Made by a program: the position numbers and the translations under genes
Notes under the pieces: model-generated
The model's database searches: none
Told to the model about the DNA's origin: nothing
The model's input: the letters and a program-made list of their open reading frames with translations, nothing else
In this document: in pieces, positions 179 to 14,980 of the stretch
How positions within the stretch are numbered: position 1 is the first letter of the stretch
Layout of the letters: the number at the start of each line of letters is the position of its first letter
Origin: an uncultured virus (IMG/VR IMGVR_UViG_3300044617_000645)
Lineage: Duplodnaviria; Heunggongvirae; Uroviricota; Caudoviricetes
DNA length: 20,000 bases
Reading direction: 5' to 3' (one strand)
Virus record (IMG/VR): IMGVR_UViG_3300044617_000645

Positions 179-490
179 TTATTTCTCTGCTTCAACTTTG
201 ACTTGCAATGGATAGCCCTGTGATCTGGCTTCCAGGGTTACTTCAATACCTTTTTGTTCTGCAATCTCATAAGGAAGCACAGCAACTACTGCGCTACCGT
301 TATCATGAATATCTTTTGTGATAGTAGTGGCAGTATCTGGATTATAATTGAAATATTCAATCAATGAACCAACAACAAATTCCATAGTAGTAACTTCATC
401 ATTCATATAGATGATTTTATACATAGGTGGTTCTTGTAGTGCGTGATTGACTTTGATATGTTGTTTTGTTTCTGGATGTGCGTTTGCCAT
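179..490 (-). CDS. clpS: ATP-dependent Clp protease adaptor ClpS
   Basis: Motifs PPMYKIIYMNDEVTTMEFVV, IHDNGSAVV, YEIAEQK and ARSQGYPL. Start moved to the ATG at 490, which follows AAAGGAAACAAAGTA; the longer ORF start runs through a hairpin. Confidence 0.93.
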   Translation of the reverse strand: MANAHPETKQHIKVNHALQEPPMYKIIYMNDEVTTMEFVVGSLIEYFNYNPDTATTITKDIHDNGSAVVAVLPYEIAEQKGIEVTLEARSQGYPLQVKVEAEK

Positions 491-511
491 TACTTTGTTT
501 CCTTTGTTAAA

Positions 512-539
512 GTGTTCGCAGCCTGATGACTGCGAACAC
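512..539 (-). terminator. 10-bp perfect stem-loop between hsp20 and clpS (terminator, attenuator or mRNA stabiliser)
   Basis: Minus strand GTGTTCGCAG-TCATCAGG-CTGCGAACAC, followed by only a short U tract (TTTAAC). Confidence 0.5.
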
Positions 540-553
540 ATGCTACTACTATA

Positions 554-1000
554 TTATTTATTGTAGGAAATTGCAATCTTCTTGGGTTGCAACTCGTCAG
601 GTACTTGACGTTCAAGGGTGATTCCCATGATACCATTGTTAACAACGGCGTCAGATACTTCTACATGGTCGGCGAGAGTAAAAGTGCGGGTAAAATTACG
701 GGCACTGATACCACGATATAGATACTCAACATTACTGTCAAGATCCACGCTCTGGCTACCCTCAATAGTAAGTAGGTTCTTATCCACAGTCACGTTGATA
801 TCCCCTTCCTTGAAACCAGCAACGGCCAATTCGATAACAAACTTGTTGTCGCTATGTTTCACAATATTATATGGGGGATAGTTTGTGTCTTTTTGCTGAT
901 TGGATAGTCTTAGAATTTCATCAAAGACTCCATCAAATCCGACTGCAAACTTGTGAATCGACGGAATGTCGAAGGAACGTAGTGTTAATGTATTTGTCAT
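554..1000 (-). CDS. ibpA: Small heat-shock protein Hsp20 (IbpA-like)
   Basis: Motifs YPPYNI, IELAVAGF, YLYRGISARNFTRTFTL, NGIMGITLER and a C-terminal PKKIAI (IxI motif). Strong SD AAGGAG. Confidence 0.95.
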   Translation of the reverse strand: MTNTLTLRSFDIPSIHKFAVGFDGVFDEILRLSNQQKDTNYPPYNIVKHSDNKFVIELAVAGFKEGDINVTVDKNLLTIEGSQSVDLDSNVEYLYRGISARNFTRTFTLADHVEVSDAVVNNGIMGITLERQVPDELQPKKIAISYNK

Positions 1001-1106: not shown

Positions 1107-1328
1107 TTAAAACTTAGACTTAGGGAGATTTTGTTGGTCTATTTGTTTTTTCCAACGTCTTTTGGCTAATTCTCTAGCGAGTTTCTTTTTGACGCTAGGT
1201 TTAGTATATGTCTCTCTATCTTTAAGTTCTAATAGTAAGCCGGACTCCTGCACCTTTTTCTTTAGTTTTCTTAGTGCTTTTTCTACGTTTCCGTCTTTGA
1301 CTATTACTTTTCTACCGTATAAATTCAT
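1107..1328 (-). CDS. rpsU: Phage-encoded 30S ribosomal protein bS21
   Basis: 73 aa basic protein with VIVKDGNVEKALRKLKKKV...GLLLELKDRETYTKPSVKKK, matching the bS21 pattern (E.ALRRFK...G...E...RE.YEKP). ATGA overlap with the clpX stop. Confidence 0.9.
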   Translation of the reverse strand: MNLYGRKVIVKDGNVEKALRKLKKKVQESGLLLELKDRETYTKPSVKKKLARELAKRRWKKQIDQQNLPKSKF

Positions 1329-2542
1329 ATTAATGTCTCAGGATTTTTCACAAGGTCCTGAATAATATTTATCTCCGCAACGTCACTTTCCTTGTATCTG
1401 CTGATGTTAAACATGTGGGGCATGAGTACTCGTTCTAGTTCGCTTTGTATGCCCCTAGCACCGGTTTTTAACTTAAGACAGTTATCAGCCATCTGTTCTA
1501 TAGCACCCTTGCTAAATTTGAGTTTGATCTTGTCGATGCTGAATAGATATGTATATTGATCAATTAGATTGTTTTTGACCTTGGTCATGACTTCGACTAA
1601 CTGTTTCTTATCTAAATCCTCTACAGATATAGAAGTAGCGAATCTACCAACAAATTCAGGTATCAAACCAAATCGTGTCAAGTCGTCCGGACTTACTCTA
1701 TCTAAGAAACTTTCATCAGTATTTGGCTTTACTTCAGCATTGAAGCCTATGCTGGTTCCCTTGATGCGAGACTTGACGATATCGTTCAATCCTACAAACG
1801 CACCGCCCGCTATGAACAATATGTTCCTAGTATCAATCATATCCATCTTGCCGTCAGGGTGCTTTCTCCCGCCATTAGCAGGAATACGACAACGTGTTCC
1901 TTCTATCAGTTTCAGTAGTGCTTGCTGAACGCCCTCACCACTAACGTCACGGGTGATACTAGTGCTTTCGCTTTTACGTGCGATCTTGTCAATCTCATCG
2001 ATGAATATGATTCCACGTTCGGCTAGTTGTATATCTCCACCGGCTTCTTGTAATAACATAGCGATCATGCTTTCGACATCATCACCTACGTAGCCCGCTT
2101 CAGTTAAACTTGTAGCATCGGCTATGACAAAAGGAACACGCAAAAACTTAGCGGCTGTCTTAGCCAATAAGGTTTTACCGGAACCAGTAGGACCTAGCAA
2201 CAATACATTACCTTTTTGAATCTCAAGATTATCCGGCGGATGCATGATACGCTTATAATGATTAGCGATAGCGACAGACAAGGTAACTTTAGCGTTATGT
2301 TGCCCGACTACATGCCCATTTAAGTGATCATAAATGTTTAGGGCATCTACATCTCTTAACGCCTCTAACATCTGATGTTGTTTCTCATCATCAGGCTTTA
2401 TGTCTTTACTAACAAGATCGTGGCATAGATACGTGCAATAATCACATATTGCTACCTCACCGGACACAATTAATTTTTTTCTTTTATCCTTATGGGTACC
2501 ACAAAAAGAACAGGTTTCTAAATGTTTTTCTTCATCACTCAT
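1325..2542 (-). CDS. clpX: ATP-dependent Clp protease ATP-binding subunit ClpX
   Basis: C4 zinc domain (CSFC...ICDYC), Walker A GPTGSGKT, pore-1 GYVG, Walker B IIFIDEIDK, pore-2 RDVSGEGVQQALLK, RKH loop (GGRKHP), ClpP-docking IGF loop and sensor GARG. Confidence 0.97.
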   Translation of the reverse strand: MSDEEKHLETCSFCGTHKDKRKKLIVSGEVAICDYCTYLCHDLVSKDIKPDDEKQHQMLEALRDVDALNIYDHLNGHVVGQHNAKVTLSVAIANHYKRIMHPPDNLEIQKGNVLLLGPTGSGKTLLAKTAAKFLRVPFVIADATSLTEAGYVGDDVESMIAMLLQEAGGDIQLAERGIIFIDEIDKIARKSESTSITRDVSGEGVQQALLKLIEGTRCRIPANGGRKHPDGKMDMIDTRNILFIAGGAFVGLNDIVKSRIKGTSIGFNAEVKPNTDESFLDRVSPDDLTRFGLIPEFVGRFATSISVEDLDKKQLVEVMTKVKNNLIDQYTYLFSIDKIKLKFSKGAIEQMADNCLKLKTGARGIQSELERVLMPHMFNISRYKESDVAEINIIQDLVKNPETLI

Positions 2543-3520: not shown

Positions 3521-4159
3521 TTAGCCGCCAGCAATCAAGCCACGTACTTGTCGAATGTCATTACTATCATACTTGTTCCAATTGATAGTACATGCCACAG
3601 TCTTGGGATCTACAAGATTAGTCTTACTGATCGCAAAACCTACAAGACGACCTTGAGCATTAACAGTAACAGTTCTGACGATATCAATGTCAGTGTTGAT
3701 CAATGCTTCGCGGACGCTATAGTTGGTATCCTTGTTAGGATCATCGGGACTCATAGAAACATCAGGTCCGATCTCAGTTTGGCTCTTGAATCTATCCTTC
3801 TGATTCTCGTTCTGGTTGTTCTTAGTAATAGTACGGCGATTTTCGGAAACGTTCATACCAAACACATAAGCGACTACGTTAGCACGGGCATTATCACACG
3901 CCATACTAGTCGTAGACTTCTGAAGCAATCGGGTAGCACCAACACTAGGTTGCACACCTACAGCCTGAATGCCGATCACTTCGCACTGTTTGCTATTCCA
4001 TAGCCACCCGCACTTCTTATCAATCTTGATAGTCTCGCCGGGAACGTTTGTTGCGAAAGTTTGAGATTCGATTGTGGGAATCTCGCCCTTCTTAGGACCA
4101 TTACTAGAACAACCAGCAATAGCCAATGCAACACCTGCAACAATTAAACTAGACTTCAT
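3521..4159 (-). CDS. Lipoprotein (possibly LPP20-like)
   Basis: MKSSLIVAGVALAIAG-C lipobox; SD GGAGA before the ATG at 4159; own sigma70 promoter. Confidence 0.75.
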   Translation of the reverse strand: MKSSLIVAGVALAIAGCSSNGPKKGEIPTIESQTFATNVPGETIKIDKKCGWLWNSKQCEVIGIQAVGVQPSVGATRLLQKSTTSMACDNARANVVAYVFGMNVSENRRTITKNNQNENQKDRFKSQTEIGPDVSMSPDDPNKDTNYSVREALINTDIDIVRTVTVNAQGRLVGFAISKTNLVDPKTVACTINWNKYDSNDIRQVRGLIAGG

Positions 4160-4193
4160 AAACGTTTTCTCCATAGTTGTGAAACGTATAATG

Positions 4194-4222
4194 ATTATAG
4201 AATAGTCTACTGTTTAGGTCAA
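4194..4222 (-). promoter_or_regulatory. sigma70-type promoter for the lipoprotein/exported protein pair
   Basis: TTGACC-N17-TATAAT on the minus strand. Confidence 0.8.
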
Positions 4223-4845
4223 GTGTTTTGGTTACCTTTTAGATGTGCTTCTATCTCAGCCTTTTCGTCATCGCTGAATACATCCAAATCGTATTCGCCC
4301 GAATTCAATTTCTCAATCAAAAACTCAATGTACTCCTTGTTGTACATATAACTTTGGCTAGTGTTCTTATTTTGCTCTAACCATTTTTTACCGTCAAACT
4401 TGAATACACGATTTGGTAACACATCTACGCGAACGAATATATCACCTTTCGCGGCTATTTTGGGAAACTGTGTTCCAAATCCTGTACTCTTTTGAGCACC
4501 TAAATCTGCTTTGGCAGAGAATAAATCCGGACGCAATTCTTTCAGTGCGTTGCTCTGATATAAAGAACTATTGAATTCTACGTAGCCGTTACCTACATCC
4601 TTTAAAGGGGTAACACCCTCAGTTATTATTTCTTTGGGGGCAACAACTTCTTGAACAGATTTAATATCGGGCTTCGGCTCCAGTTTGTTAGGTTCTTCCA
4701 ACTTAACTTTTCTTTTACGTTTAGTTGGCTTAGGCTGGAACGTAACTTGCTTGAGAGGTTTGACGGGCTTAGTGACTTTATTTGGTCTAATCTTGGCAAC
4801 TTTAAGTTTAGGTTGCTCAACTTTAGCCTTTCGCTTAACTTTTTT
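4219..4845 (-). CDS. -1 frame ORF; likely frameshifted C-terminal extension of the upstream membrane protein (ORF track start is TTG at 4701)
   Basis: The frame is open from just after TAG (4855-4857) through the A9 run to TGA at 4219. It has no ATG or SD near its beginning. It encodes a Lys/Pro-rich linker and then a globular-looking domain (GFGTQFP...KGDIFVRVDVLPNRVFKFDGKKW). Confidence 0.75.
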   Translation of the reverse strand, partial: KKVKRKAKVEQPKLKVAKIRPNKVTKPVKPLKQVTFQPKPTKRKRKVKLEEPNKLEPKPDIKSVQEVVAPKEIITEGVTPLKDVGNGYVEFNSSLYQSNALKELRPDLFSAKADLGAQKSTGFGTQFPKIAAKGDIFVRVDVLPNRVFKFDGKKWLEQNKNTSQSYMYNKEYIEFLIEKLNSGEYDLDVFSDDEKAEIEAHLKGNQNT

Positions 4846-5831
4846 TTTACAGGACTATCCTGCTTTACTTCTTCTTTAACTAAGCCGCCGTCGGCAGTGA
4901 GTTCTGCATCCCCTGCTTTTGGCTCAATAGGCTCGCTTGTTTGTTCTTTTTCTTCAGGGGTTAATGGTAGATATCCTGCTGTGGTGGCCGGAACAAACTC
5001 TTCCTTCTTTTCAAATTCCCATTTATAACTACTGATTGCGGCGATCACAAGCATCAATGCTAATGGGTCAAATACAAAAATCAATAGTATGATTACCCAA
5101 CGGACGGCCTTTTCTAACAACGCATTGTCTGGGTTGTCACCATATATCAATGCCGCGATATATTTTATAGGACCTACTTCTGCTTCAATCTTACGAAACT
5201 GAGTGGCTAACGGAGCCTTTTCTAAACTCAATGCCTGTATAGTCTGATTTGATTTTTCTATACGGGACTGTGCATCATCAATCTCTTTTGTATATGCCTG
5301 TCTATCTCTACGCTGTGCGGCTCTTATCTGTACGGATCTTTCTGCACTTGCCTCACTAGTGCCGCGATCCAGTCTTGCGGACACTTGAGCATCCATCTGT
5401 GATAATGCTCTGCGGGCAGATTCTATATTTTCGCGCTCACTGCTTATCAATTCACGCTGAATAGCGATCTTCTCATCGATTAAACTTATCTGAGCAGCCA
5501 CATCGCCTGTAGGTATACCCTGATCCATATGGGCTTTGCTTAAGAAGCCGAATATGCCCATGCTTGTGACAAGTGCTAATACTGCTACAGCACCTGTCAA
5601 ATATGTTTTCATCAACCATCTACATCTTTCCCAATATCGGTGCAACCATATCGTTGTAACAATCTTGGCTACCTCGAGACTACCTCCCATGATGATCACG
5701 GGTATGACGGCGGCAGCGAATATAGCGGTCAAACCGACTACGCTATACCAGGCTGCTATGGCACTGAGCGTTAATGCTGTGATTAACGCTAATGTAGATA
5801 GGCTAAATACTTTCCTTATTAATAGTGGCAT
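4626..5831 (-). CDS. Multi-pass membrane protein with long coiled coil (phage hypothetical)
   Basis: Three N-terminal hydrophobic segments (ALITALTLSAIAAWYSVVGLTAIFAAAVIPVIIMGGSLE; YLTGAVAVLALVTSMGIFGFLSKAH), a heptad-rich middle, and a further TM segment (WVIILLIFVFDPLALMLVIAA). Start placed at the ATG at 5831, 5 nt after ATAAATA. Confidence 0.85.
   Translation of the reverse strand: MPLLIRKVFSLSTLALITALTLSAIAAWYSVVGLTAIFAAAVIPVIIMGGSLEVAKIVTTIWLHRYWERCRWLMKTYLTGAVAVLALVTSMGIFGFLSKAHMDQGIPTGDVAAQISLIDEKIAIQRELISSERENIESARRALSQMDAQVSARLDRGTSEASAERSVQIRAAQRRDRQAYTKEIDDAQSRIEKSNQTIQALSLEKAPLATQFRKIEAEVGPIKYIAALIYGDNPDNALLEKAVRWVIILLIFVFDPLALMLVIAAISSYKWEFEKKEEFVPATTAGYLPLTPEEKEQTSEPIEPKAGDAELTADGGLVKEEVKQDSPVKKKLSERLKLSNLNLKLPRLDQIKSLSPSNLSSKLRSSLSQLNVKEKLSWKNLTNWSRSPILNLFKKLLPPKK
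4839..4863 (-). other. Putative programmed -1 frameshift / transcriptional slippage signal
   Basis: Minus strand GCAGGA-TAG-TCCTGT-AAAAAAAAA-G. It contains an in-frame A_AAA_AAG heptamer (4845-4839) inside an A9 run, with an upstream hairpin and SD-like AGGA about 12 nt before the heptamer. Confidence 0.7.
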
Positions 5832-5870: not shown

Positions 5871-6104
5871 TTATTCTCTAGGTTCAGGAGCCTCTCCTTT
5901 ACCAAACAAATGCCCGTAATTGCCTAAAAACTCTGTAAGAGACTGCACAAGATTTCGTGGAATGCCTGGACCTTGTTGTACTAGATATCCTACAATAAAG
6001 TCTTCGTCACCGCGCCATTTGATATGCTTAACTTCAAGCCAGTCACCATCAGCGAACATATATCGCTGACCTACTAAATCTTCGTAGCCGCTGAGTTTAG
6101 TCAT
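5871..6104 (-). CDS. Hypothetical protein (77 aa)
   Basis: ORF in the packed minus-strand array; the ATG at 6104 overlaps the end of the upstream gene. Confidence 0.75.
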   Translation of the reverse strand: MTKLSGYEDLVGQRYMFADGDWLEVKHIKWRGDEDFIVGYLVQQGPGIPRNLVQSLTEFLGNYGHLFGKGEAPEPRE

Positions 6105-6387
6105 CTTCGCCGGGAACCTCATAGGCTACGTCATAGCCACCCTTGCGATCACTGAACCAATCATCATCACGGTCGTAATCGTAGTTTTCGATGAACTCTA
6201 AGAAATTATCATGCTCTTCATCAGTAGGTTCTTCACCTTCTGGTTCGTTCCAATCATTGCTAGTCATATGGCTAGCGATCTCTTTGAAACGTTCTACTGA
6301 ACCAAAGTTCTCAATGATATCTTCTTCAGGGATATCATAATTAAAATGACTATGTACTTGGTGATACTCAATTTTTACGAATTTCAT
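6097..6387 (-). CDS. Highly acidic small hypothetical protein (96 aa)
   Basis: SD AAGGAG before the ATG at 6387; about 30% Asp/Glu. Confidence 0.85.
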   Translation of the reverse strand: MKFVKIEYHQVHSHFNYDIPEEDIIENFGSVERFKEIASHMTSNDWNEPEGEEPTDEEHDNFLEFIENYDYDRDDDWFSDRKGGYDVAYEVPGEDD

Positions 6388-6599: not shown

Positions 6600-6829
6600 T
6601 CTTCAACTCCGAAATGTTCTTTAATATCTTTAAGATGTTTCATGGAACGCAAATACTTTTCAGTATTGTGGCCATCACGGGTAATACCCATCTGAATAGT
6701 TAGAATACATTCTTTCACAATCAACTGGGCAAACTTTTCTTTGTCAAAGATCCATCCCTCGCCACTGTTTGCTGTTGGCTCAATATAGGTAGTAGCCTGT
6801 ACGGCAAGTAGTTTAATTCGTTCGTTCAT
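6596..6829 (-). CDS. Small 'MNER...FAxLI...HFG' family protein, copy 3
   Basis: MNERIKLLA...EKFAQLIVKEC...IKEHFGVEE; ATGA-coupled. Confidence 0.85.
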   Translation of the reverse strand: MNERIKLLAVQATTYIEPTANSGEGWIFDKEKFAQLIVKECILTIQMGITRDGHNTEKYLRSMKHLKDIKEHFGVEE

Positions 6830-13414: not shown

Positions 13415-14980
13415 TTACTGTACGGTTTTCACACCCTTGTAAAACTTGATAGCACCTTTTAACGACTTGTTATTCAACACGTTGTCCGGATACACAATGA
13501 TATCCATGATGCCGTCACCATCAAAGTCTGCCATTTCGGACATATGCTTATCAACATCATGCAATACAAACTTAGACAGATCGCCGATATCTAACTTTTT
13601 GAAAGTAGAGTCTTTCTGGTTGATATAGATACGACTGATCTCATTAGTCTTTCCTGGACCCACACTCATGACAAGATCATCATAACCATCTTTGTTGACA
13701 TCGATGCATTGCAGTCTGCCACCAGTGAGATTAGTTTCCCCGGGTATGTTTAGAGCAGTTCTAATAAGTTCCTTACCTTTGATCGTGTATGCAGTTAGTT
13801 CGACATCAAAATTAAGATTTTCAAACTTTAATTCCGTACCGGAAGCATATAACGTTTTTAATGTGGGCATGTATGTGACACCTACAGAGAAGGGCTCACT
13901 ATTACCCATTCTAACCGTGCAAAGATTTTCAACTCCGCCCATAGTACCGGCAAGTACATGCTTACCTTTATACTCATAGACATCAACTGGTTTTCTATCT
14001 CCGGCGTAATTGATTATAGATTGACCAGACGCTATTAATTTCATCTCAGGGTTCACATGATTAGTAGGGAACCATGAACCATTCTCCATATAGTAACCTT
14101 CTACACCATAATGTCCTCGAAAGAATGTTTGCTGTACCATCCTGTTCGATGATTTGTTATCAGTAGAATAGAAATTAAAAGTCACAGGACTGATGCCGGG
14201 AAGTATACCATCGTGTACAGTATGTAAACTCACTCCATTCCACATATATTTGTGATTCTGTCTATAGACTCCTAGATCGCTGGGGAAGCCGGCAGCGGTG
14301 ACGAATTGTTTTCCATAATAGTCAACACCGTGACCTATGCTACCATAGTACTTACCTTCACCAGTCCTGTGCATCTTATACTTTTTGTTAGGTTGACTTA
14401 CGTAAGCCACTACATAACCTGTGACTAACGAACCAGCATCGTTGCTCCTACCATCAGACTGATTAGTAGAGTAAAAGATATCTTTTAATCCGTCACCGTT
14501 GATATCAAGTATAGAATAAATGAATCCAGAACACGATTGGCTATCTCTGGTTCCCTCGATATACTTTTCGCTAGCGTCAACAAACTTGCCTTCACTATTC
14601 AATTCATAGATAACTGTCAAACTTTTGCAGGGCTCTGCTACATAACTACGCCATAATAGATCAGAACCTTTGCCCTTGTGAAAGGTCATGAGAAATTCAA
14701 GTTTACCGTCATTGTTGAGATCGACTGCTATGCTACCTGCCACCTTAGCGGGATAATTTTTACCCGAAAGATCAAGCGGCGCGCTAGCGTGTGCAGGATC
14801 AAAAAACCAGTACGTCAATGTAGGATCGGGGAAAGCACCTGCTACTTCTTGAAAGTAGTCTTTGGATACTACTGCGGCCTGAGTGACCGGGGCATTATTA
14901 GTAGTCGGGGCAGGATTACTTCCACCGCCACCGCATGCAGTAAGAATGATACTGCTAACAACATAAGCAACCTTGCGCAT
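13415..14980 (-). CDS. Lipoprotein with FG-GAP/VCBS-like Ca-binding repeats (probable beta-propeller)
   Basis: Lipobox ILTA-CGGGG; four DxxxDG repeats (DLNNDGKLE, DINGDGLKD, DVNKDGYDD, DFDGDGIMD). Confidence 0.85.
   Translation of the reverse strand: MRKVAYVVSSIILTACGGGGSNPAPTTNNAPVTQAAVVSKDYFQEVAGAFPDPTLTYWFFDPAHASAPLDLSGKNYPAKVAGSIAVDLNNDGKLEFLMTFHKGKGSDLLWRSYVAEPCKSLTVIYELNSEGKFVDASEKYIEGTRDSQSCSGFIYSILDINGDGLKDIFYSTNQSDGRSNDAGSLVTGYVVAYVSQPNKKYKMHRTGEGKYYGSIGHGVDYYGKQFVTAAGFPSDLGVYRQNHKYMWNGVSLHTVHDGILPGISPVTFNFYSTDNKSSNRMVQQTFFRGHYGVEGYYMENGSWFPTNHVNPEMKLIASGQSIINYAGDRKPVDVYEYKGKHVLAGTMGGVENLCTVRMGNSEPFSVGVTYMPTLKTLYASGTELKFENLNFDVELTAYTIKGKELIRTALNIPGETNLTGGRLQCIDVNKDGYDDLVMSVGPGKTNEISRIYINQKDSTFKKLDIGDLSKFVLHDVDKHMSEMADFDGDGIMDIIVYPDNVLNNKSLKGAIKFYKGVKTVQ

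Follow-up and report, generated by a model that had tools for sequence, protein, structure and literature searches.

The locus described here raises the question whether a gene that changes reading frame at a run of nine A residues (A9) is broken by an error, divided into two genes or recoded during its expression, and, if it is recoded, whether the RNA polymerase or the ribosome makes the shift. It lies in a 20,000-nucleotide (nt) stretch of DNA, hereafter the window, from an uncultured virus of the Caudoviricetes (IMG/VR record IMGVR_UViG_3300044617_000645). The window belongs to a viral contig of 100 kb whose completeness is rated at 27%, and all genes around the A9 site lie on the minus strand (Table 1). 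The codons GTA AAA AAA AAG occupy positions 4850-4839 of an open reading frame (ORF) for a membrane coiled-coil protein, referred to as the 0 frame. The -1 frame is closed on its upstream side by a TAG at 4857-4855 and is open thereafter to a stop at 4221-4219, and joining the two frames at the run gives a protein of 331 + 206 = 537 aa with the junction ...DSPVKKKVKR. A preliminary description, made from the letters of the window alone, had proposed a programmed -1 frameshift at this point, and its coordinates for the A9 run, the heptamer A_AAA_AAG, the TAG, the frame ends, a hairpin and an AGGA placed 12 nt before the heptamer all hold on re-reading.

By composition, the presence of such a run is unremarkable (1 A9 run found in 20 kb versus 1.06 expected), although it is the sole run of nine or more across the 100-kb contig; its significance comes from its location exactly at the frame junction and its conservation in relatives. 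Other runs of at least eight on the contig, an A8 at contig position 4277 and a T8 at 6749, were considered as similar sites and set aside, since they do not lie at frame junctions. The break is genuine and selected and is very probably programmed recoding of some kind, and a probability of roughly 0.55 is assigned to the reading that the shift is made mainly by RNA polymerase slippage, which would produce mRNA with ten A residues (A10), with a nascent hairpin assisting.

Conservation of the frame break among relatives

Three independent lake-water DNA assemblies (X1, X12 and X19, the last bearing no flag as a potential origin of the window) span the run and show A9 with 0 gaps and 0 substitutions, so that the choice between A9 and A10, which the preliminary description had proposed to check, falls to A9 in 3/3 assemblies at contig level. 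All run lengths given here were read from assembled contigs, in which minor read variants are not visible. Large myophages and jumbo phages, including Pelagibacter phage Mosig, Flavobacterium phage immuto and XacN1, encode homologues (281-381 aa) of the N-terminal (N) part of the protein, which is 330 aa long, and the C-terminal (C) part has no tblastn match among 50,697 cultured-phage records. The C part, used to scan viral and metagenome contigs, recovered 160 loci, which together with the window make 161 sources, some contigs occurring in both collections. Among these, 63 carry the -1 break, 86 are in frame, 2 have a +1 break and 10 are on contigs without the N part; the -1 break is thus present in 63 of the 151 related loci that hold both halves, and the possibility raised beforehand that homologues would be uniformly in frame does not apply. 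The run is A9 in 58 of the -1 loci, A8 in 4 and A10 in 1. De-duplication left 60 distinct junctions with a run of at least eight (51 with the -1 break, 1 with +1 and 8 in frame). The homology to relatives of the N and C parts changes frame exactly at the A9 run, and the slip site and break are conserved over the 51 distinct -1 junctions, at a divergence that nearly saturates the proportion of differing synonymous sites (pS) in the rest of the gene.

Distant in-frame relatives (N identity 46-62%) are single ORFs without a run, about 450-570 aa long, of which 47 distinct full-length representatives were aligned, and a large protein set holds 72 clusters with the C domain, nearly all of 460-573 aa. 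Judged by the 86 in-frame loci and these 72 clusters, the fused N+C protein is the normal architecture, which the -1 clade must shift to make. The earlier proposal of two forms of about 401 and 537 aa from one recoding site is strengthened accordingly, the long form being the one shared with the in-frame relatives.

A quick maximum-likelihood tree of the N domain (IQ-TREE, 90 distinct rows) places the -1/A9 loci in one clade of 33 rows with a Shimodaira-Hasegawa-like approximate likelihood ratio test (SH-aLRT) value of 92. In the same tree, this clade is sister to the in-frame A9 lineages L028 and L143 (joint support 99), and two -1 loci, L140 and L147, sit on long branches beside an in-frame, run-less group. 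L028, L143 and a further locus, L030, carry A9 at the equivalent position, have their N and C parts in frame and lack the hairpin; a slip there would truncate the protein within 4-8 codons, which is the inverse arrangement, as in Yersinia tssM3. Separately, comparison of locus L031 (= L012) with L154, which is identical in all else, shows that 25 nt of the N domain are tandemly duplicated in L031, some 485-460 nt ahead of the A8 run of L031 and in columns 616-640 of an alignment of 1825 columns, and this duplication accounts for the extra frame change in L031.

The 0-frame tail and the dual-coding overlap

The preliminary description had likened the 0-frame tail beyond the run to an off-frame read. 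This part of it does not stand, as the tail is kept open, is conserved and has a motif of its own, W..LT.W..SP.L. In all 51 distinct -1 junctions, the 0 frame remains open for 66-86 codons past the run and stops at a similar end point, both frames being open over about 70-80 codons. Resampling was performed by keeping the protein of one frame and redrawing its codons from the gene's own usage: with the -1 protein kept, the 0 frame was as long in only 0-5 of 2000 draws (8 sequences), and in the reverse test, with the 0-frame protein kept, the -1 frame was open in only 0-38 of 1000 draws (39 sequences), counts which, like those from shuffling below, come from related sequences and are not true probabilities. 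For the -1 frame, the overlap has a pS of 0.49, compared with 0.75 for the C domain outside the overlap and 0.67 for the N domain. Of 487 diverged pairs (32 sequences), 477 show a smaller value for the overlap than for the C domain, as do 28/28 pairs of the first eight sequences, in which variability at third positions drops from 0.53 to 0.30 in the overlap.

Each frame also shows its own conserved block. At 90% consensus, the 0-frame tail reads K..L.W..LT.W..SP.L, and W..L..W is found in 48 of 51 tails. Over the 20 codons of this Trp-motif block, mean pairwise identity is 0.69 in the 0 frame versus 0.52 in the -1 frame (41 distinct blocks), and the -1 codon over the first Trp varies (TTG in 35, GTG in 3, CTG in 2, ATG in 1) as the TGG is kept. 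Further upstream in the overlap, the KQV.F.PK block has an identity of 0.63 in the -1 frame versus 0.44 in the 0 frame, a comparison biased by the anchor having been picked in the -1 frame; the shorter KQV.F.P motif of the -1 frame, located upstream of the TTG codon at 4701, occurs in 32/51. In composition, the 0-frame tail is rich in Leu and Ser, contains two Trp and is basic (15 K+R, 3 D+E), the -1-frame linker is Lys/Pro-rich (23 K+R, 10 P), and the C domain is near neutral in charge. All tests agree in direction and indicate that both frames are translated, that both tails matter and that the overlap is dual-coding.

Slip site and mechanism of the shift

The 48 distinct -1/A9 junctions have exactly nine A followed by G in every case. 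The codon preceding the Lys codons ends in A in 31/31 distinct junctions: where it encodes Val, it is GTA in 27/27 versus 41% gene-wide, and the other four junctions have CTA, TTA or CCA. Conservation thus extends to two A residues that lie outside the heptamer, one of which is a synonymous position. Immediately 5' of the run, the hairpin pattern (C/G)AGG-N3-5-CCT(G/C)T is present in 43/48 of the distinct -1/A9 junctions, its stem ending 0-1 nt before the run; in the window, the TAG that closes the -1 frame forms the loop of this hairpin (4863-4849). Pairing holds in 89% of cells across 40 distinct rows, and the stem has a covariation score of 0.174 versus 0.091 in shuffles, a value reached by 0/500 shuffles, with most pairs never varying and the second pair being CG in 35 rows and GC in 2. 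Codon usage is fixed at the same place, with CAG for 25/25 Gln codons (42% gene-wide) and CCT for 28/28 Pro codons (36% gene-wide). Removal of one A from the run leads to a stop within five codons in 48/51 junctions (...VKKS stop), so an A8 transcript would give a third, truncated product. The preliminary description had seen no strong 3' stimulatory structure, and RNAalifold likewise predicts 0 pairs for 27 sequences over about 80 nt downstream of the run; the local fold of the window at the site is unremarkable (z-score -1.28).

Under transcriptional slippage, an unslipped read of the A9 template would yield the 401-aa short form with a functional 70-aa basic tail containing the two conserved Trp, and a fraction of expression would enter the -1 frame at the run to give the 537-aa long form, in which the same membrane/coiled-coil module is followed by a disordered Lys/Pro linker and the conserved globular domain. 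On the T9 template, the entire RNA-DNA hybrid of about 9 bp would consist of rA:dT, and the small nascent-RNA hairpin directly behind it could aid realignment of the transcript with insertion of one A, producing A10 mRNA. Loss of one A would give A8 mRNA, whose protein would end just after the run. A ribosomal -1 slip on A_AAA_AAG may add to the long form, and both mechanisms could act together. Runs of nine A/T slip efficiently in vivo, as described in the available part of PMC5009743. The mechanism is favoured because the full A9 is conserved, because the stem adjoins the run and covaries, and because the 3' stem-loop of the dnaX type is absent; the geometry matches that of Roseiflexus IS630, with a stem that reaches to within 0-1 nt of a run spanning the full length of the RNA-DNA hybrid. 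What the sequences show is the break, its conservation, selection on both frames and conservation of the hairpin; heterogeneity of the mRNA, stimulation by the hairpin, the isoform ratio and the cytoplasmic placement of both tails are inferred.

Several observations weigh against slippage by the polymerase. The hairpin is missing in 5/48 of the -1/A9 junctions, its fifth pair is unpaired in 16/39 distinct rows (AU 14, UA 9), and it is weak, with 4-6 bp and -4.3 to -6.4 kcal/mol, which is not the 6-bp all-GC stem of the Roseiflexus type. The significance suggested by the shuffle and resampling counts is overstated because the sequences are not independent. The sole metatranscriptome match (X20) is one contig of 154 nt located at 5426-5579, away from the run. 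In addition, the 5' arm of the hairpin always has AGG at 12-13 nt, a distance like that of a Shine-Dalgarno (SD) element, before an ideal heptamer, and the phase of the run suits tandem ribosomal slippage in every -1 variant, so that a ribosomal shift fits equally well on this point.

A more far-reaching form of the slippage reading, advanced tentatively and at less than even odds, is that hairpin and A9 constitute a tuned, terminator-like slippage device that provides three isoforms of a membrane scaffold from one gene: A8 mRNA would end at the run, A9 mRNA would encode the amphipathic tail with the Trp motif, and A10 mRNA would encode the Lys/Pro linker and globular domain. If this is true, the hairpin sets the ratio, hairpin-less or in-frame lineages make other ratios, and a dual-coded overlap of about 75 codons is upheld across a diversified clade of large freshwater phages.

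The alternative that survives best is a dnaX-type ribosomal -1 shift on A_AAA_AAG in mRNA that is uniformly A9, stimulated by pairing of AGGA/AGGT with the anti-SD sequence. The heptamer stands in frame, and an invariant G follows the run in 48/48 A9 junctions; AGGA or AGGT is conserved 12-13 nt upstream of the heptamer (in the window, AGGA at 4861-4858). For dnaX-type stimulators, the range of SD-like spacing covers 12-13 nt. Moreover, A8 and A10 variants still present A_AAA_AAA in phase. SD-like motifs precede 10/34 window genes, a modest use that does not decide for or against such pairing. A ribosomal shift also accounts poorly for the two conserved A residues outside the heptamer, one of them synonymous, and for the lack of a conserved 3' stimulatory structure in the 27 sequences. 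The AGG, furthermore, is one arm of a stem whose partner arm likewise has fixed synonymous positions and covaries, and an upstream hairpin adjoining a shift site is reported, in the part of PMC6321510 that is available, to attenuate -1 frameshifting. The ribosome is judged less likely than the polymerase to be the main agent.

Variation at the DNA level, in which replication slippage would create A9 and A10 phage genomes with one form per virion and no recoding of the RNA, appears improbable. Two pairs of loci, each from different assemblies, resemble what it would produce: L131 (A11, in frame) and L133 (A10, -1) have 0 mismatches in 1650 nt, and L122 (A8) and L023 (A9) are likewise identical except for run length. 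These pairs may be homopolymer assembly errors or real population heterogeneity, and they are the only two pairs in which run-length variants are found, whereas A9 is the consensus in the -1 loci (58/63) and in the 3/3 assemblies across the window's own site, and no A10 version of the A9G lineages was recovered. The 0-frame tail, moreover, is under selection, and that tail and C domain are selected in the same genomes implies expression of both from A9 genomes.

It is highly improbable that the C part is a separate gene translated from TTG 4701 and that the membrane protein always ends at 4626. The ESM Atlas does contain an ORF called from this internal TTG, and a start-capable codon (TTG, GTG or ATG) occurs there in 39/41 distinct blocks; however, the T and G of this codon are dictated by the overlapping 0-frame Trp, and its first base varies, with CTG in 2 blocks. 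In agreement with the preliminary description, no ATG lies near the beginning of the -1 frame, the TTG is its first start codon and no SD precedes it. Opening of the -1 frame precedes the run by a median of 9 codons, and from the run to the TTG the frame is open and without a start for 45-62 codons in 49/51 junctions, its protein is conserved upstream of the TTG (KQV.F.P), and N and C form a single ORF in the 86 in-frame relatives.

Finally, a sequencing or assembly error in a true A10 genome with a plain 537-aa gene is scarcely credible: homopolymers are error-prone and the site was inspected in contigs only, but the same A9 and break recur in 51 distinct junctions from many assemblies, and an error cannot account for a 0-frame tail that is conserved and kept open.

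The product, its neighbourhood and known recoding systems

Hydropathy analysis of the N module gives four hydrophobic helices (about residues 8-32, 31-63, 78-96 and 236-264), with helices 3 and 4 separated by a helical hairpin of about 120 residues and with Lys/Arg clusters at the N terminus, in the loop between helices 2 and 3 and just past helix 4. By the positive-inside rule, the helical hairpin would be periplasmic and both alternative tails cytoplasmic. An AlphaFold model of the in-frame relative L131 (554 aa, 47-row alignment) is in agreement and has a mean predicted local distance difference test (pLDDT) score of 72, with confident helices in the N module (pLDDT >90 over most of the N part), a disordered linker at 285-423 and a C domain in which beta strands precede helices (block-mean pLDDT about 63-92); the model of the C part alone is poor (pLDDT 58). 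The N part matches Pfam DUF4407 (PF14362) with 19.1 bits, below the gathering cutoff of 31.3, a precomputed PF14362 match exists for 7/72 full-length relatives, and a weak match of the N module to Tetraspanin in Pfam is also below cutoff. For the C domain, a search of Pfam and PHROGs returned nothing significant (best phrog_11591, E 2e-4), as did a profile search of PDB sequences (best E 0.02), and Foldseek against pdb gave no hit at E <= 1e-3, listing long-helix look-alikes only. A wide VIA-align search with the low-confidence C-only model reached a best Z of 3.5, and searches of the ESM Atlas with the C domain yielded only viral hypothetical clusters. A literature search for DUF4407 found few mentions, none of them in a title or abstract, and none was found for this protein family or its recoding, supplements being outside the search. 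As a guess by analogy with tssM, the product may be a phage inner-membrane scaffold built from a set mixture of two tail types. The 154-nt contig mentioned above, from a freshwater metatranscriptome, matches the N domain exactly over 5426-5579, which hints at expression, DNA carry-over being possible.

Table 1. Positions of the slip site, the two overlapping frames and the neighbouring genes in the window
Feature	Position	Strand	Remarks
0-frame ORF, short form, 401 aa	4626..5831	-	ATG 5831 to TAA 4628-4626
Make-up of the short form: membrane/coiled-coil module and 70-aa basic Leu/Ser/Lys/Trp tail	4626..5831	-	
Shared N module, about residues 1-275	5007..5831	-	Hydropathy and AlphaFold model of L131
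Hairpin GCAGGA-TAG-TCCTGT, adjoining the A run	4849..4863	-	RNAfold -6.3 kcal/mol
A9 run (T9 on the template side), slip site	4840..4848	-	
In-frame heptamer A_AAA_AAG, candidate ribosomal -1 site	4839..4845	-	Read directly in the sequence
Dual-coding overlap of 0-frame tail (70 aa) and -1-frame Lys/Pro-rich linker on the same bases	4626..4838	-	
Conserved 0-frame motif LSWKNLTNWSRSPIL	4662..4706	-	Both Trp codons kept, overlapping -1 codon variable
-1-frame continuation, 206 aa and stop, reached only via the shift: disordered Lys/Pro linker, then C domain	4219..4839	-	
Conserved globular C domain, about 133 aa, beta strands then helices	4222..4620	-	No recognised family or fold
TTG, first start codon of the -1 ORF	4699..4701	-	Gene callers open a separate ORF here
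83-aa gene, no known family	5871-6122	-	Syntenic in 45/63 -1 loci and 79/86 in-frame loci
217-aa protein with lipoprotein-signal-like N terminus (...VALAIAGCSS)	3521-4174	-	No family match
Protein matching PHROGs 'ATP-dependent protease'	179-541	-	
Hsp20	554-1000	-	
Ribosomal protein S21	1107-1328	-	
ClpX-like AAA+ ATPase with ClpX zinc finger	1325-2542	-	

The conserved neighbours are the 83-aa gene upstream, a possible functional partner, and the ClpX-like gene downstream. Between the recoded gene and the latter lie the lipoprotein-like gene and a 320-aa gene, both fast-evolving and sometimes absent; the 217-aa lipoprotein-like product has 26-38% identity in relatives and is present in 44/86 in-frame loci. 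A role in a lysis cassette, considered because the Mosig and immuto homologues neighbour genes for a glucosaminidase, a chitinase and a holin, was rejected in view of the conserved neighbours found here. The ClpX-like gene belongs to a cluster of host-like proteostasis and translation genes on the minus strand (179-2542). On the same strand, 13415-14980 encodes a 521-aa protein with C-terminal FG-GAP repeats, and the 100-kb contig carries tRNAs for Ser and Gly only, with no Lys tRNA.

Recoding in phages is known mainly from tail chaperones and capsid genes, together with a few genes of replication. In the present case, the gene for a membrane protein of large freshwater phages has kept its slip site across a diverged clade; the long overlap selected in both frames and the arrangement of hairpin plus homopolymer are both unusual, long stretches with both reading frames under selection being rare. 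Gene callers split or truncate such a gene, as with the ESM Atlas ORF from the TTG, so that real products are missed in metagenome annotation. The family also offers a natural variant series for slippage efficiency, comprising hairpin with A9, A9 without hairpin, A8 then GG, A10 and A11, in-frame A9 and no run. If the predicted topology is correct, a single periplasm-spanning coiled-coil module would bear either of two cytoplasmic tails; this suggests stoichiometric mixed assembly, which would provide a handle on the function of the DUF4407-like family.

Among known systems, dnaX of Thermus thermophilus can be highlighted, in which tau and gamma arise by transcriptional slippage on nine A/T, according to the available part of PMC5009743. 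Both genes have exactly nine A residues inside the coding region and two products with a common N-terminal part. In Thermus, the long product comes from the unslipped frame and translation of slipped mRNAs ends immediately, whereas the phage gene read without a slip encodes a short form that has a long conserved tail of its own, a hairpin adjoins the run, the product is a membrane protein and not a replicase subunit, and slippage is a sequence-based candidate. E. coli dnaX reaches the same two-product outcome by ribosomal -1 frameshifting (PMC5009743, same part). Its cassette shares with the phage site the A_AAA_AAG heptamer and an AGG-containing element about 12 nt upstream; the phage site differs in having no 3' stem-loop, in that its upstream element is half of a hairpin and in a run longer by two A residues.

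Transcriptional frameshifting at a poly-A run has also been described for tssM1 of Citrobacter rodentium and tssM3 of Yersinia pseudotuberculosis, where an inner-membrane protein is made in two lengths, slippage yielding the long form in one species and the short form in the other (PMC4256274, available part). The phage family likewise shows both arrangements, with the -1 clade on one side and the in-frame A9 loci L028, L143 and L030 on the other. The tssM sites differ in having A11, a stop just past the run, no dual-coded tail and no hairpin reported in the part of that source available, and slippage is rare among tssM genes, whereas the phage site is kept through the whole clade. In the IS630 element of Roseiflexus, a nascent stem-loop 5' adjacent to the slip motif drives slippage (PMC5009743, as far as available). 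The stem-loop directly 5' of the slip motif and the terminator-like geometry are common to both. The Roseiflexus motif, however, is heteropolymeric (T5C5), loses one base on slipping and requires a stem of 6 bp, all of them GC, whereas the phage homopolymer can slip unaided and needs an insertion. Finally, lambda G/GT makes a short and a C-terminally extended product by a -1 shift, as described in the same part of PMC5009743. This is likewise a phage gene with short and C-terminally extended products obtained via a -1 shift; here, the product is a membrane protein encoded next to a ClpX-like gene rather than among tail genes, the slip site is homopolymeric, and about 70 codons are dual-coded.

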